Source: Reclinomonas americana ATCC 50394
Taxonomy: Eukaryota
Reading direction: 5' to 3'
Assembly (NCBI GenBank): GCA_048213135.1
Contig: PS015081.1
Span: 168,785 to 232,784 of the forward strand
Length of the DNA: 64,000 bases
Of this stretch, positions 726 to 58,111 are shown one piece after another. The translations under genes and the position numbers were made by a program. Each line of letters starts with the position of its first letter. The stretch's first letter is position 1. The notes under the pieces were generated by a model. That model made no database searches. It saw nothing but the letters and a program-made list of their open reading frames with translations, and was not told where the DNA came from.

Positions 726-2152
726 TCATTCGCCACTCGTTTTTCGCGCAAAAGACAGCGTCTGTTGCAAACCGCTGTCGAGATCCCATTTCGGTTGCCA
801 GCCACATGAGAGGAGACGATGCACGCAGGCCATGGAGTGTTTTACGTCACCCGGACGCGCGTCCGCGTGTACAATGGTGCTGGACGAGGGGTTCGTGATT
901 GGTTGGTAATCAAATCGCACGCCGGTTTGTGTGTGTCACACGCGATTCAGCTCACCTTGCGGACGACAGTGCGCCAATGATGCGCGCCGCCAGCTGGTTG
1001 ATGGTGATGGACTGGCCGTAGCCGACATTGTAGACGCCGGGCGGCACGCAGTCGCCGTGCAGCGCCACATAAACATTGGCCTGCTTGCGCGCGCGTGAGC
1101 GAGACATGCTGCGCGTGGCACCACGACCATCGAGGACGCAACGCTGGCCACATCGCGCACATACACAAAGTCACGCGTCTGTTCGCCGTCGCCAAACACG
1201 GAGATGGGCTCGTTCGCCAGCGCACGCTGCACAAAGAGCGGAATCGCCGCCGCATACGCCGAGTGCGGGTTCTGTCGCTCGCCAAACACATTAAAGTAGC
1301 GCAGACACACGGCCGTCATCGTCGATCCGCTGGCGTCGGCCGCCGAGAACAGCTTCAGTGCGTAGAACTCGCCATCGAATTTGGAGAGTGCGTACGGACT
1401 GGCACCGCGAAAGGCCGCGTCCTCGGTCCACCCATCGACGCCCATGAACGAGTCGTCGCCACCATAAATGGCCGCCGTCGACGACAGCACCACTCGCTGC
1501 ACGGTGCCACATCGTCGACACGCCTCCAGCAGCGTCAACGTGCCCAACGAGTTCTGCTTCACATACTCTGCACGCGAAACAAAAAAGGCTCGGCGAGCGA
1601 AGGCAGGTGACTGTTGGCGATGCAGGCAAGGCACGAAACTGGCCGGATCGCTCATGCTCTCAGGCACCGAGATGGCCGCTGCAAGTCACACGGTCACTCC
1701 CAATACATCGCTTTTGCAAGACGGTCGCTCACTGACTGACCTGCAGTGTGAAACACAAAATGCACGCCATCGCGCAACGCCGCCTCCACATCCCCCGCCA
1801 CTGTCACATCACCCTTGATGAACTCCACTCGCTCCTTTGACAGAGTGAGTGAGACACACTCTGTCGCGATGCGATCGGGAGAATACACACCATCACATGC
1901 GCGAGGTTATCCAAGCTACCCGTCGACAAGTCATCCAACACACGTACTCTATCAAAGCACATGAGACGTGCACACGAAAACGGGGGGAAAAGGGGACGAA
2001 AAGACCTCCACAATGGATCCTGCAAGAGTGTCTCCACAATGTGACTGCCGATGAATCCTGAGAGGCAGTGAGGGAGATAAAGAGGTGGAAGGAGAGAAGG
2101 AAGGAGACAGACCTGCACCACCAGTGACAAGCGCAAGTCTCGTCGCTGTCAT
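726..2152 (-). CDS. NAD-dependent sugar epimerase/dehydratase (UDP-glucose/UDP-GlcNAc 4-epimerase, WbpP/GalE-like), multi-exon
   Basis: Spliced product has LVTGGAGFIGSH, LDDLSTG, SSTAAIYG, SPYALSK (YxxxK), LRYFNVFGERQNPHSAYAAAIP, GDGEQTRDFVYVRDVA, YNVG, RPGDVKHS. Confidence 0.9.
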
Positions 2153-2315
2153 GTGAGAAAAGCACAGAGTGATCGTGAAATTTCTTGTGCATCAGATCCC
2201 TTCTGCTCTTGTCAGTGTGTTCAGTGAGGAGTGTGTGAGTGCGTGAGTCCCTTCTCTCTCTCCCGCCTTCCTCTCTCTCTCTCTCTCTGTCTGTGTGCGA
2301 GAGTTCTGTGCGAGG

Positions 2316-3315
2316 ATGGAAGGCCCTGTTCATGTGCGCTACTGGATGGAGGAGGAGAGCGAGAGCAATGCCAAAGTGATGGTGATCTCCATGGGCACAG
2401 ACACAATCACGTTGCGTCTTCATTGACACACTCACGCGCACACACGCGCACACACGCGCACACATGAGTATGCGCATCAGTGTGCACTGCTGATGCGCAT
2501 GTGTGTGTGAGAGGAGAGAGAGTGTGTGTGTGTGTTGCTGACTCACGCGCACACAGCGCGCACAACACACACACACGCACACACACGCACACGCACAGAT
2601 ACACACATTGCTTTTCGCCTCCACCAATGCGTGGAATGCATTGGAAACTTTTCTTCTCATTGATATCTTTGTCATCATTCAGTGTGGAGGAGTTGCTGTC
2701 GTTTCTCGCCGGCGATTCGTGCCCGGTGCACTTCCTGCAGGGCTTGGTGATTCACGACATGCGGCTGGATAAGTACAAGATGGCGCGGCCTAATGTGGCG
2801 TCGGATCGAGAGGTTTCGTTTGCCTTCGCGTGCGTGCGTTAGGTTGCCCGAGGCGCTCATCCACCTCCCGTAGCTCGAGTTCCCGCTGGTGTGGGAGCCG
2901 GATGCGACCGGGAAGGTCACCACGCCGTGCATTTTGCATGTAATGTTGCAGTTCGAACGCGTGGTGCGGTACACGTCGTGTTCGATTACGCTGTCGGTGT
3001 CGGCGGTCGGGGCCATGCTTGGTGTGGAGAACCTCGTGCCCGACGTGCACGAGAATGTGTGGACGACGGCACGTGTCTATGATTCGCATCTCGGCGGCTT
3101 TGTTTCGTTGCGAGAAAAGTACACGTTTCCGCTGGAGGAGACCGAAGTACGCGTCCATGAGCACATGGTGCGCGCTCCGGCCGGCGATCGCCGCTCCGTC
3201 CGTTGCGTACCATCAACTGCGAGTATGTGCAAGCCCTGTCTCACGCTGACGGCGCGGCGGTGTCGCACAGGTGCCGGGTCCATGGGCAGTTCCGCCATTC
3301 CCAAGCACTTTGTAA
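2316..3315 (+). CDS. Hypothetical protein (4 exons)
   Basis: MEGPVHVRYW...TITVEELLSFL...LEFPLVWEPD...; introns 2411-2682, 2813-2873 and 3168-3270 keep the frame open; TAA at 3313-3315. Confidence 0.55.
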
Positions 3316-3353
3316 TTCTGCGCTACGAGACGTGGATCGTGGTACAGGTGGCC

Positions 3354-55600: not shown

Positions 55601-55958
55601 TCCTCCTTCCTCGCCTTCCTCCTCCTCATCATCCTCATCGCCCTCATTGCCGACCTCAATGACATCGACGATATCCGACGGGTCGATGAAGTTGCCCTCT
55701 TCGTCGTAGAAGCCGGTCTGTGTAATGTCGCCGCCTTTGTGTGTGACAGAGAGAGAGAGAGAGTGAGAAAGAGAGTGCGCGTGACATGTCGCGGAACAAA
55801 CACGCGAACGCACCTGCGTCGTCCGGTCGCCGCTCGTCGCCGCCTTCACCGTCACCACTGCCACTGTTGCCGGCCTGTGCGGAGAACGCCGAGTGTGAGA
55901 CGAGAGAGAGAGAGAGACATGTCAACTTGTGCAACAAAAGACGCACTGATGCGCTCAT
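52650..55958 (-). CDS. SQT1: WD40 ribosome-assembly chaperone SQT1/AAMP
   Basis: Acidic N-terminus, GHTDAVYTVAFHP..LASGGGDDRAFLW, VEWIDWHQKGDVL, GHGDAVLCGQFSPDGKQIYTGSAD, GHRDVILDM. Confidence 0.88.
53571..53843. repeat. Diverged ~165-nt tandem duplication inside SQT1 intron 53408-54018
   Basis: AAGGAACGGAAAGACAC at ~53572 and ~53738; TCGAAACCAAGCAGCAC.TGCATCCATCTGCC at ~53647 and ~53811. Confidence 0.75.
54601..55470. repeat. 10-nt minisatellite (CACACACTTN)n in a SQT1 intron, interrupted by an N gap
   Basis: Dozens of phased CACACACTT(G/T/C/A) units seen directly. Confidence 0.95.
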
Positions 55959-56192
55959 GCTTCTTTCCGGATGCAGTTGATGCTTGCTCACAGGAGGACT
56001 AGCGAAAGAAAGAAAGAAACGGCGGAGCTTTGCTCGCACACAAACGCGCGCTAATCGGAGACTCTCCTTCTCTCGCACTCCGCGTCGATTGCCTTCCCGC
56101 CAGCGAGCACGGAAGAGACAAACCAATCTGTCCCACATAGCATATCTTTCGCACTTGTCGGAGCAATCGCACATCTCCACACAACACAGACT

Positions 56193-58111
56193 ATGGTGCG
56201 TGCGTGTGTGCTGTGCTTGCCTTTCTGCAGAGAGCGACATTTGCATTGAAGACGTGCTTATCCTTGTTTTCTCTCAGGCTTCTCCTGCTGGACTTCCTGA
56301 GGGCTGGGTGCCGACTCCGGTGAGTGTGCACATACTTTGAGTGACACGCGTGTGTGTGAGAAGAAAGAGAGAAGAGTTTGAGTGAGAGAGAGTGGGGCAT
56401 GCCACCTCCAGTTGGACATCTCAAGCAGGGGAAACCTCGTTTGCTCTCATCTGAGTGCGTCAGTGTGTATATGCCAAGAGAAAGAGCGAGATAGACACTC
56501 TCTCCCCACCTCACACGTGTTGACGCACACACACATGGCGAGATGCGAGATGCGATGATTCCCTGGATTCTTCCTCATCTTCTCTCTTCTCTCTCTCTCA
56601 GGCCGGCCGCTTCCACAAGTTTGCCTACTTGAACTGGTACGTGAGCAACGCCATGCAAGCGGCGACCTTTTACTGCACGCGCTTCGGCTTCCACCCATAC
56701 GCCTTCCGCGGACTGCAAACCGGTCACCGCGAGGTGCGATCCTCCTTTGGTCACACACATTCGCGTGTGTGTTGTCTCACTGTGTTTTTTGTGCGCAGAT
56801 GGCCACACAAGTGGTCCGCAACGGCGACATCTTCTTTGCGTTCTCGTGCGCGCTCAACCCCGGCAATCACGAGTTTGGCGCGTGGCTCGAGAAGCACGGC
56901 GATGGTGTGCGCGATGTGGCGTTCGAGGTCGACGATTGCCGCGCGATCTATGAGAAGGCCGTGCGCGAGGGCGCCGTGTCGATCCGCGAGCCGACGGAGG
57001 AGTCGGATGAGCACGGCTCGGTGATTCTGGCCACTGTGCAGACTGTTGCGTGCTTCTGACATTCCAAAGGAAGATTCGGCGAACTTATGAGAATGATGCG
57101 TTGGGTGATGCAGTACGGCGACACGGTGCACACGTTTGTGCAGCGCAATGGCTACTCTGGCCCCTTCCTGCCGGGCTACAAGCTCGTCACCGAGGACGAG
57201 CCGCTGAACGCGGTGCTGTTGCGTCGCACTGCTGCTGCTCGATGTGTGAGGTCGTGAATCGTCCGCTTATCCGTGTGTCGCATGGTGCAGGCCGGAGGTG
57301 CACCTCGATTCCGTCGACCATGTGGTCGGCAACCAGGACTGGGAGGGCATGAACCCAGCCGAGCGGTGGTATTACGAGAAGCTTGGTGAGTGTGCCTCCC
57401 CCCCCCTGTTCTTGCATCATCCATCATTTTGCGCTCACTCTCGATGGGCGCGCAGGCTTCAAGCAATACTGGAGCGTCGATGAGACGCAGATCCACACCG
57501 ACTACAGCGCACTGCGCTCGGCTGTCGTGGCGGATCTGGAGGAGCACATCCTCATGCCGATCAACGAGCCGGCTCGTGGTCTGCGCAAGTCGCAGATCGA
57601 GGTGTGTTGATCGGTGGTGATGCCCACCTACTGCTGACGACTCACTCTGTCATTGCAGGAGTACGTCGAGTACTATGGCGGCCCCGGTGTGCAGCATGTG
57701 GCGCTGCGCGCGCCGAACATTCTGGAGGCGATTTCCGCCATGCGCGCGCGCGGCCTCAAGTTCCTTGACGTGCCGAAGAAGTACTACGACGATCTGCGCA
57801 AGCGCCTGTCGCGCTCGCCGGTGCAAGTCAAGGAGGACCTCGACACGATTGAGGCACTGAACATTTTGGTTGATTTTGACGATGGTGGCTACCTGCTGCA
57901 AATTTTCACCAAGCCTCTGGAGGATCGCCCAACGCTGTTCATCGAGATCATTCAGCGCGCCAACCACAATGGCTTCGGCGTCGGCAACTTCAAGGCCCTC
58001 TTCGAGGCCATTGAGCGTGACCAGCAGGCACGCGGCAATCGTTACGTTTTCTTGATGTATGTGTAATCTGTGTTTGTTTTTGACTCAAAACCCTTGCTGC
58101 GTGCAGTGTAA
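56193..58111 (+). CDS. HPD: 4-hydroxyphenylpyruvate dioxygenase, 9 exons
   Basis: [102 protein letters not shown]. Confidence 0.97.

Follow-up and report, generated by a model that had tools for sequence, protein, structure and literature searches.

Is a donor whose conserved core lies one base too far into the intron a routine 5' splice site in Reclinomonas americana? The question was raised by a window of 64,000 nucleotides, the whole stretch of DNA that was analysed and to which all positions below refer, in which an earlier note had listed 42 donors carrying the usual GTGCGT with one extra T. All 42 sites (28 on the plus strand and 14 on the minus strand) were found to bear GTT[GA][CTA]G at the listed base, including 35 GTTGCG, 4 GTTACG, 2 GTTGTG and 1 GTTGAG, and the base at -1 was G in 0/42, as the note had claimed. 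The donor is written below as H/GTTGCGT, with the slash marking the cut and with the rarer cores ACG, GTG and GAG. On both strands of the window 49 GTTGCGT heptamers were counted; 100 shuffles that preserved dinucleotide counts contained 16.4 on average (sd 4.5, largest 29). Of the 49, 32, about two thirds, were predicted donors, compared with 29/114 for GTGCGT. The GTTGCGT donor class was confirmed as an observation, and its routine use here was supported, all counts coming from this single 64-kb window.

Gene models and homology at the junctions

Introns were predicted with our own Viterbi gene finder, which in its motif-free form used only GT..AG ends, a coding model and an antisense shadow state. 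Among the 147 introns of this pass GTTGCG was the commonest donor hexamer (19/147), whereas in sense gene spans 54 of all 3630 GT dinucleotides began a GTTGCG (binomial p 1.1e-12). A signal-trained pass yielded 201 introns, of which 40 began with GTTGCG; among the 42 listed sites it found 25. The core set consisted of the 145 introns of 45-130 nt with a YAG end (56 were removed), and contained 66 ordinary GTNNGT donors, 45 other donors and 34 extra-T donors (GTT[GA][CTA]G; 23%), the last count depending on signals that the finder had trained itself, which could reinforce GTTGCG. The earlier note had put the class at a quarter to a third of introns; the share was indeed substantial, but slightly lower here, with an estimate of about 20-23% of the short introns. 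Donors of the class predicted by the signal-trained finder, given by first base, included the following.

Plus strand: 2411, 3202, 8507, 10216, 13431, 17852, 19865, 20348, 32950, 33068
Plus strand, continued: 35364, 37502, 44152, 44338, 45025, 45214, 46725, 49549, 62983
Minus strand: 7051, 16249, 20998, 21299, 21680, 22151, 22888, 23070
Minus strand, continued: 28425, 29592, 47812, 48215, 53021, 53323, 60779

Fifteen of these were absent from the earlier list. The minus-strand site 20998 was the only one that followed G, and its predicted intron, of 163 nt and with a GGAG acceptor, was out of the ordinary and doubtful.

Such predictions could in principle be gene-model artefacts, if splicing truly took place at another GT or at a boundary lacking GT and the motif were enriched for a different reason. 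This explanation was considered very improbable, though 17 of the 42 listed sites were missed by the signal-trained finder. The missed sites included 58041, 12580 and 52496, which were supported by homology, 4127, supported by eye only, 8243, whose junction was the best GT-AG solution but low in rank, and 12 sites outside the homology checks (5436, 9808, 10657, 18730, 32718, 41329, 41439, 41661, 41789, 46348, 21545 and 54440). Against an artefact, the motif had arisen without any donor model, and for 12 of the 34 core-set extra-T introns a second GT-AG pair that kept the frame and avoided stops was absent within ±15 nt. An alternative with a GTNNGT donor within the same distance existed for only 3/34 and was absent in 31/34.

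The junctions were further examined through homology. For HPD, an HMM of 86 HPD homologues was used to score all in-frame boundary pairs within ±15 nt, whatever their dinucleotides; for an amino-acid transporter, an HMM of 41 homologues was used with boundary pairs of any dinucleotide. The other genes were compared with PDB chains or a domain profile.

57045..57113, plus strand: HPD intron, donor ACT/GTTGCGT; top HMM score of 631.2, with 307 alternatives
57218..57290, plus strand: HPD intron, donor CT/GTTGCGT, phase 2; top score, with 320 alternatives
58041..58106, plus strand: last HPD intron, donor ATC/GTTACGT; top score, with 321 alternatives
9198..9263, plus strand: amino-acid transporter intron, donor CT/GTTGCGT; GT-AG pair at rank 1 of 971 pairs (491 distinct peptides)
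9342..9423, plus strand: amino-acid transporter intron, donor CAA/GTTGCGC; rank 1 of 1312 pairs (735 distinct peptides)
1081..1142, minus strand: epimerase intron, donor AGC/GTTGCGT; exons contiguous on PDB chain 3ruc_A
12260..12321, minus strand: aspartyl-tRNA synthetase (AspRS) intron, donor GAT/GTTGCGT; flanking exons on consecutive parts of AspRS chains
12506..12580, minus strand: aspartyl-tRNA synthetase intron, donor GA/GTTACGC; from the three-frame view, missed by the finder
52291..52496, minus strand: LAMTOR2 intron, donor CT/GTTGAGT; length agreement with PDB chain 5x6u_B
4127..4189, plus strand: intron of a TBC-domain gene, donor ACGA/GTTGTGT; frames by eye, partial support

The HPD junction at 57045 tied solely with a non-GT-AG pair yielding the identical protein, and that at 57218 was the only GT-AG pair in its top-scoring group. 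Splicing at 58041 gave a protein ending in RGNL before the stop codon, and the unspliced frame fitted the HMM only to position 380 of 381. Residues 5-139 of the 141-residue upstream exon of the epimerase aligned to 3ruc_A 127-251, which places its last residue at 253; the downstream exon had its residue 2 at 255, so its residue 1 falls at 254 and the exons are contiguous. The flanks of 12321 covered 71-113 then 128-153 of 4ah6_A, and 74-124 then 128-153 of 4wj3_M, contiguous within one residue, and those of 12580 were ordered on 4wj3_M (10-60 then 74-124), with a junction in a loop that was not residue-precise. Exon 1 of LAMTOR2 comprised 22 codons plus 2 nt and residue 1 of exon 2 lay at residue 24 of 5x6u_B (125 residues), an exact agreement in length; exon 1 searched alone against PDB gave no match. 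The downstream exon at 4127 began at position 100 of the RabGAP-TBC profile, and a Pfam search of the upstream exon gave no match.

The class motif occupies the junctions that homology and the reading frame demand. In favour of an artefact, sites 10216 and 8243 were the best GT-AG solutions yet ranked only 26 and 29 overall, and an in-frame reading of 5436 requires an unproven micro-exon of 24 nt. Against it, scans with unconstrained dinucleotides ranked the GTTGCG junction first in 5/5 well-conserved cases, and the PDB alignments ran continuously over the junctions. Removal of GT...AG introns restored frame and homology, as is characteristic of U2-type introns.

Exon ends, phase and intron bodies

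In the core set G stood at -1 in 0/34 extra-T sites, in 49/66 ordinary sites and in 36/45 other sites (Fisher test of extra-T against ordinary, 2.8e-14); in the motif-free core set the figures were 0/13 and 18/22. That ordinary donors mostly follow G, as had been proposed, agreed with these counts, and mutual exclusion of the second donor class and exonic G at -1 was supported. A rule that confines the class to exons unable to end in G would be too strong, because 4 of the 7 phase-0 cases ended in Pro, Leu, Val or Thr codons, for which synonyms ending in G exist. Compared with the plain sequence background (G in 13.5% before GTTG and 15.9% before GTT), the depletion was more modest, with a probability of about 0.003-0.007 for 0/34. 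With the coding background by phase, 9.9 G at -1 were expected among the 34 sites (P about 6e-6).

The logo of the extra-T sites showed GCG at +4 to +6 in 34/34 and T at +7 in 28/34. Position +5 was C, never G, and +6 was G in all 34, which means that the core was displaced by one nucleotide, as expected of a shifted register. A at -2 was found in 7/34 sites, against 31/66 ordinary ones. These results supported a class without exon-side consensus and with a stricter intronic core. The GCGT core was present in 28/34 extra-T sites, 14/49 ordinary sites after G and 9/17 ordinary sites after non-G, the pattern expected if the intron side compensates for lost exon pairing.

Donors after non-G comprised 34 extra-T, 17 ordinary and 9 other sites, so that the first two stood at two to one. 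The extra-T share of non-G donors rose from 7/21 in phase 0 through 11/19 in phase 1 to 16/20 in phase 2, that is, with the coding constraint on the -1 base, and phase 0 was under-represented in the class (7/11/16 against 58/37/16, p 1e-4). These proportions bear on a simpler explanation, in which duplication of a T converts H/GTGCGT to H/GTTGCGT and is tolerated as near-neutral since the strong intronic core suffices, without a special recognition mode. Such a change lies inside the intron and leaves the reading frame untouched, and the core preference of the class resembles that of ordinary sites after non-G. However, a neutral change should also be seen after G, where 85 of the 145 core-set donors, none of them of this class, are found, and 0/34 was seen with 9.9 expected. 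The excess over ordinary sites after non-G (34 to 17) and the predicted use of 32/49 heptamers as donors also argued against a by-product, which was judged improbable.

In branch motif, acceptor and length the extra-T introns resembled the ordinary ones. The branch scan covered the CTSAY box, which was present in 22/34 extra-T and 47/66 ordinary introns at a median of 18 nt from the 3' splice site in both; GCAG was the commonest acceptor in both, and the median lengths were 68.5 nt and 64 nt. The branch box and YAG acceptor were those of ordinary, U2-type introns. U12-type introns have a fixed donor, no exon consensus and an under-representation of phase 0. The extra-T class shares these features, which would be compatible with a re-tooled minor (U12-like) class or with the remains of an introner family. 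Both identities were rejected, and an origin of this kind is scarcely credible. The logo was unlike the RTATCCTY donor, of which the window held 3 matches, none at an extra-T site; the window also held, at 4364-4455, an AT-AC intron of the standard kind, with ATATCCTT and TCCTTGAC boxes; and the box and its spacing were ordinary. When the 145 core introns were compared all against all by blastn, 15 pairs had E<0.01; they matched only over stretches of 14-26 nt, several in GT-repeat starts, and none joined two extra-T introns.

How the extra T may be read

That GTTGCGT donors occur only after non-G exon ends suggests that the machinery reads many donors one base off. We put at roughly 0.55 the probability that the class consists of true U2-type GT-AG introns whose donor, a second and fixed form, is read by the major spliceosome one nucleotide out of register. 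The GCGU core would be recognised one nucleotide deeper in the intron than usual, with intronic G+1 taking the usual place of exonic G-1 opposite U1 C9 and with one U (+2 or +3) mismatched or bulged. U6 would later have to tolerate the extra base too, and cleavage would stay at the only GU. The extra-T form would pay only if a G at -1 is unavailable from the exon. Where G is present, a one-base deletion turns G plus GTTGCGT into the optimal G/GTGCGT, so the combination would not persist.

The heptamer /GTTGCGT matched the ordinary G/GTGCGT at 6/7 positions, and in this formal likeness the shifted register proposed in the earlier note held up. Its simplest form was disfavoured by nearest-neighbour duplex modelling, for which the U1 5' 11-mer was taken from Tan 2016 (PMC4856993). 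With this standard 11-mer the extra-T sites were the worst class (mean -1.07 kcal/mol, near-zero predicted pairing in any register); the corresponding means were -7.12 for ordinary sites that follow G and -2.72 for those that follow non-G. A plain reading in the shifted register is therefore incomplete. The extra U was destabilising in model sites with the standard 11-mer or with a G5/C6 variant, and favourable only when an A was added at position 8. Since the extra-U site pairs more weakly, pairing energy alone explains neither the two-to-one ratio nor the exclusion of -1 G. The variant U1 or U6 snRNA or altered factors suggested in the earlier note may be involved.

A dedicated variant U1, with A for C8 and G/C-rich positions 5-6, would pair perfectly with GUUGCGU, and two U1 species would then serve one donor class each on otherwise identical introns. 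Only such a hypothetical 5' end paired the extra-T sites strongly (mean -11.63 kcal/mol, with -6.06 and -6.39 for the ordinary sites), GCG was invariant in 34/34, and ordinary sites after non-G favoured GCGT over the AAGT expected with standard U1 (9/17 against 1/17). To our knowledge C8 and C9 of U1 are near-universal, however, and no snRNA gene was seen in the 64-kb window. The -1 rule was also left unexplained, as a modelled -1G site paired slightly better (-12.6 against -11.9), and an AG/GTGCGT consensus occurs in Micromonas too (PMC3879977), so a GCGT core need not imply an odd U1. We regard a dedicated variant U1 as rather unlikely. Only tentatively, one intron type may carry a 5' splice-site code of two forms, the usual register after G and GUUGCGU one base off otherwise, recognised either by an additional U1 species or by U1 and U6 that have jointly adapted to a bulged U.

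If the one-base-out reading is true, a recognition mode rare in humans would be a standard pathway for one fifth of introns. Cut-site choice when U1 pairing and GU conflict has so far been examined only at rare human sites and in artificial reporters. With dozens of sites in 64 kb, an invariant heptamer and a clean -1 rule, this genome would offer a natural test system for the contribution of C9 pairing, the tolerance of U6 and Prp8 for an extra base, and the shaping of donor evolution by coding constraint at exon ends. Gene finders with a single donor model will mis-annotate about one fifth of its introns.

Comparison with known systems

A report of a comparable donor class was not found in our literature searches. 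Compensation between the exon and intron sides of donors is known, with two classes of 5' splice sites (U5/U6 balance, LUC7 handedness). As in those classes, G at -1 was anti-correlated here with intronic core strength (GCGT in 9/17 after non-G and 14/49 after G); the known classes share one register, whereas the intron-heavy class here has an extra nucleotide. U12-type introns likewise lack an exon consensus, have an invariable donor motif and are biased against phase 0, but the motif here is another, the branch box is ordinary, and the window contains a standard AT-AC intron as well.

A likeness in recognition exists in human cells, where validation has been obtained for shifted registers and for bulges at +2/+3 (Tan 2016, PMC4856993, citing Roca and Krainer 2009 and Roca 2012 for the shifted (+1) register and bulges). 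According to that paper, validated noncanonical registers account for 3119 of 201,541 human sites (1.5%), and the +2/+3 bulge for 68 predicted sites. As described there, these sites have a GU donor with the consensus core one nucleotide further downstream, and are cut at the GU, not at the place predicted by the U1 helix, by the major spliceosome; the same would hold for the class here. Unlike these sites (about 1.5%), the present class makes up 20-23% of introns, with a near-invariant heptamer, a strict non-G at -1 and a GCGU that pairs poorly with standard U1. In the ordinary class, the window resembled Micromonas, whose canonical introns have an AG/GTGCGT donor and a CTGAC-type branch box (Verhelst et al. 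2013, PMC3879977). The accessible part of that paper does not mention a GTT form of the donor. The introns here are not repeats, unlike the introners described there, and their branch box is separated from the acceptor by about 18 nt, compared with 43-52 nt in Micromonas.

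Donor census and anatomy of the introns

The window was nuclear DNA of a eukaryote, about 57% G+C and interrupted by six N runs; its genes were densely packed and carried many very short introns. An earlier note had placed donors of the form GTTRYG(T), such as GTTGCGT (GTGCGT with one extra T), at 42 coordinates (28 plus, 14 minus). The motif GTT[GA][CTA]G was present at 42/42 of them, as GTTGCG (35), GTTACG (4), GTTGTG (2) and GTTGAG (1). These sites are termed S donors here, and ordinary GTNNGT donors are termed N. GTTGCGT was observed 49 times in the window; shuffled sequences gave 16.4 ± 4.5 and never as many as 49.

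For a donor census independent of the reasoning of that note, a Viterbi gene finder was built from a coding model (3-periodic Markov, with six HPD exons as seed) and an antisense "shadow" state, with any GT..AG of 35-400 nt allowed as an intron. The motif-free pass, run without a donor or acceptor model, gave 147 introns, and the top donor hexamer was GTTGCG (19), followed by GTGCGT (13); GTTGCG made up 54 of the 3630 GT in sense gene spans (donor enrichment p = 1.1e-12). With self-trained signal models 201 introns were predicted, 40 of them with GTTGCG donors; 25/42 of the previously named sites were recovered and 15 further sites were new. Filtering for 45-130 nt and a YAG end kept 145 of the 201 introns as the core set (56 dropped), comprising 34 S donors (all GTTGCG), 66 N donors and 45 others. 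Predicted donors were 32 of the 49 GTTGCGT heptamers versus 29 of the 114 GTGCGT hexamers.

Aligned as |GTTGCGT and G|GTGCGT, the two forms were identical at 6/7 positions. In the core set, the exon consensus was absent from S sites and their core was almost invariant. At N sites, +3 was G 40, A 11, T 9 and C 6, and +4 was C 35, T 21, A 8 and G 2 (pyrimidine in 56/66); the ordinary consensus window-wide was G|GTGCGT, and GTAAGT occurred only once. Branch-like box, acceptor, length and composition were the same in S and N introns. An introner family was rejected as the origin of the S class, since core introns matched one another over stretches of 14-26 nt only and had no common sequence beyond these. 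A U12-type identity was also rejected, because the donor logo differs and a standard AT-AC intron coexists in the window:

4364-4455, plus strand: probable U12-type AT-AC intron of the TBC/TLDc gene, opening with ATATCCTT, closing with CAC and carrying TCCTTGAC and TCTTTGAC boxes close to its 3' end

Across this intron the RabGAP-TBC profile ran from 100-153 to 159-198, contiguous via a split His codon. The GT-AG-only gene finder wrongly bridged the region, and a second ATATCCTT at 60868 lay within an ordinary intron.

Several other features were observed. Nothing useful was obtained from Pfam for the ten longest ORFs of the window. A 567-aa open frame at 30138-31841 (+) was without Pfam match, and its closest language-model clusters were "putative cytochrome P450", mostly of Chlorophyta, which is a weak pointer to lineage. 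Long CAG/CCN runs were located at 41100-41300 (+) within a homeobox-containing ORF that an N run at 40775 interrupts in its 5' part. Upstream of a WD40 exon, 54600-54700 (-) contained GT-rich repeats (GTGTGTGAAAGT-like, about 12 nt each).

Placement of S junctions by homology

The HPD gene, an exon of which had a best database match of 79% identity, was tiled over six exons by an HMM built from the 86 homologues of 365-410 aa among 120 fetched, and all in-frame boundary pairs within ±15 nt were scored with any dinucleotide permitted. The S junctions at 57045, 57218 and 58041 reached the top HMM score, and each was the sole GT-AG pair among the top solutions. A one-base boundary shift (TT..AGN) was rejected, as it gave lower HMM scores wherever the readings differ. 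Three of the six HPD donors were S and three ordinary, the latter all after G. A second HMM, from the 41 homologues among 150 that were 440-570 aa long, was applied to the transporter at 7831-10831, in which the S donors 9198 and 9342 ranked 1 of 491 and 735 distinct peptides, and three ordinary donors likewise ranked 1. Among GT-AG pairs, 10216 and 8243 came first, although the stretches around them carry little information; at 9808 and 10657 the adjoining exons were poorly matched and the boundary scan gave no junction choice.

Other genes were examined exon by exon. The exons flanking 1142 in the epimerase abutted exactly on WbgU chains, and those at 12321 and 12580 in AspRS aligned in order with the gap within one residue or one loop; the homologous-protein search with an AspRS exon gave no match. 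At LAMTOR2 site 52496 (GTTGAGT), the 22 codons plus 2 nt of exon 1 precede an exon 2 whose first residue is number 24 of 125 in the protein; a PDB search with exon 1 by itself (22 aa) gave no match. The TBC site 4127 (GTTGTGT) fitted by eye with partial Pfam support, and Pfam on GNAT, TBC and MFS exon pairs helped in part or not at all with sites 13431, 4127 and 19865. Ten Sec6 exons searched singly against Pfam gave one weak Sec6 match only. The WD40 exon (sites 53323, 53021 and 54440) matched mostly generic, largely bacterial WD40 proteins, among which there were no clear orthologues.

Within ±15 nt, 12 of the 34 core S introns had no other in-frame, stop-free GT-AG pair, and a GTNNGT alternative donor was available in only 3/34. 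The plus-strand donor 5436 (GTTACGT) fits the frame of its neighbours only if a micro-exon of 24 nt (5412-5435, with GCAGAG as acceptor) is included; the alternative is one 274-nt intron, 5240-5513 (+).

Dependence on the last exon base

The earlier note had also claimed that GTTR donors are used only after an exon not ending in G. This held at the sites it named, where G preceded the donor (position -1) in 0/42, and extended to the core set, with G at -1 in 0/34 S, 49/66 N and 36/45 other donors (Fisher S vs N, 2.8e-14). The motif-free core set gave 0/13 S versus 18/22 N. The rule was not a product of the self-trained model, since that model rewards G at -1 whatever the donor. The depletion was weaker against the sequence background (G before GTT 15.9%, before GTTG 13.5%), for which P(0/34) is about 0.003-0.007, and stronger against the coding background by phase, where the G frequency is 0.374 at codon position 1, 0.185 at position 2 and 0.401 at position 3: 9.9 S sites after G were expected and none was found (P about 6e-6). 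Ordinary G|GTTCGT donors exist, and therefore GGTT itself is not forbidden at donors. The sole S site after G, 20998, belonged to a doubtful predicted intron of 163 nt with a GGAG end.

Among non-G exon ends of the core set, S donors numbered 34 versus 17 N. The S share rose from 7/21 in phase 0 to 16/20 in phase 2, in parallel with the constraint on the -1 base; for 4 of the 7 phase-0 S sites a G-ending synonymous codon was available.

GTTTCGT donors (ordinary GTTCGT plus one T) were also observed at 1639 (-), 2813 (+), 20218 (+) and 15914 (-), with A, G, G and C at -1, respectively. They may form a second core of the S class, for which the non-G rule may fail. Only 1639 lies within a conserved protein, its junction being read by eye.

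Pairing register and comparison with known systems

S donors resemble the human shifted and +2/+3-bulge registers in the available portion of Tan 2016, so a displaced alignment with the U1 5' end is the most economical reading. In such a register, intronic G+1 would replace exonic G-1 opposite U1 C9, one U would stay unpaired, and the cut would be made at the sole GU. We judge it somewhat probable (roughly 0.55) that the same spliceosome reads S donors in this way, as compensation for the missing G-1. Among ordinary sites, the GCGT core was present in 9/17 after non-G vs 14/49 after G, and the G|GTGCGT consensus, together with the preference of non-G sites for GCGT over AAGT, hints at a pairing partner favouring GCGU. 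Micromonas, however, shows the same consensus, given as AG|GTGCGT in the accessible text of PMC3879977.

In the duplex model, S sites were the weakest class against the standard U1 11-mer, at -1.07 kcal/mol. When positions 5-6 were set to G and C in a hypothetical U1, every class paired more strongly, yet S stayed last (-7.43). A dedicated U1 variant reading S donors would be a rather unlikely alternative: an additional A at position 8 gave the strongest S pairing (-11.63), the only model favouring S, but it failed to predict the exclusion of G at -1. Because 0/3 models predicted this exclusion and the standard 11-mer ranked S worst, the modelling also leaves the displaced register incomplete. 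No snRNA gene was detected in the window by Rfam at gathering scores, and at E<=1 there were only microsatellite-like miRNA false matches. The -1 rule could come from evolution and not from mechanics; after G the S form would be transient, since a single T deletion there gives an optimal ordinary site.

In a metagenome scan, the HPD exon found matches of at most 76% identity. The one contig of similar composition, L011:1-5738 (GC 0.59; GTTGCG 11, GTGCGT 14, GTAAGT 0), had GT-rich spacers. Its HPD (2224-3384) was intronless, and therefore L011 offers no comparison of donor conservation. Several of its GTTGCG sites looked intron-like, and some of them follow G.

Literature searches by motif and concept, with most subscription journals outside their coverage, found no description of such a donor class; the S class, defined by reading frame and homology in one window, may be undescribed. 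The AG|GTGCGT consensus is common to the window and Micromonas, and the GTT form is unmentioned in the accessible text on the latter (PMC3879977). In human, according to the available portion of Tan 2016 (PMC4856993), the validated noncanonical registers add up to 1.5% of sites.
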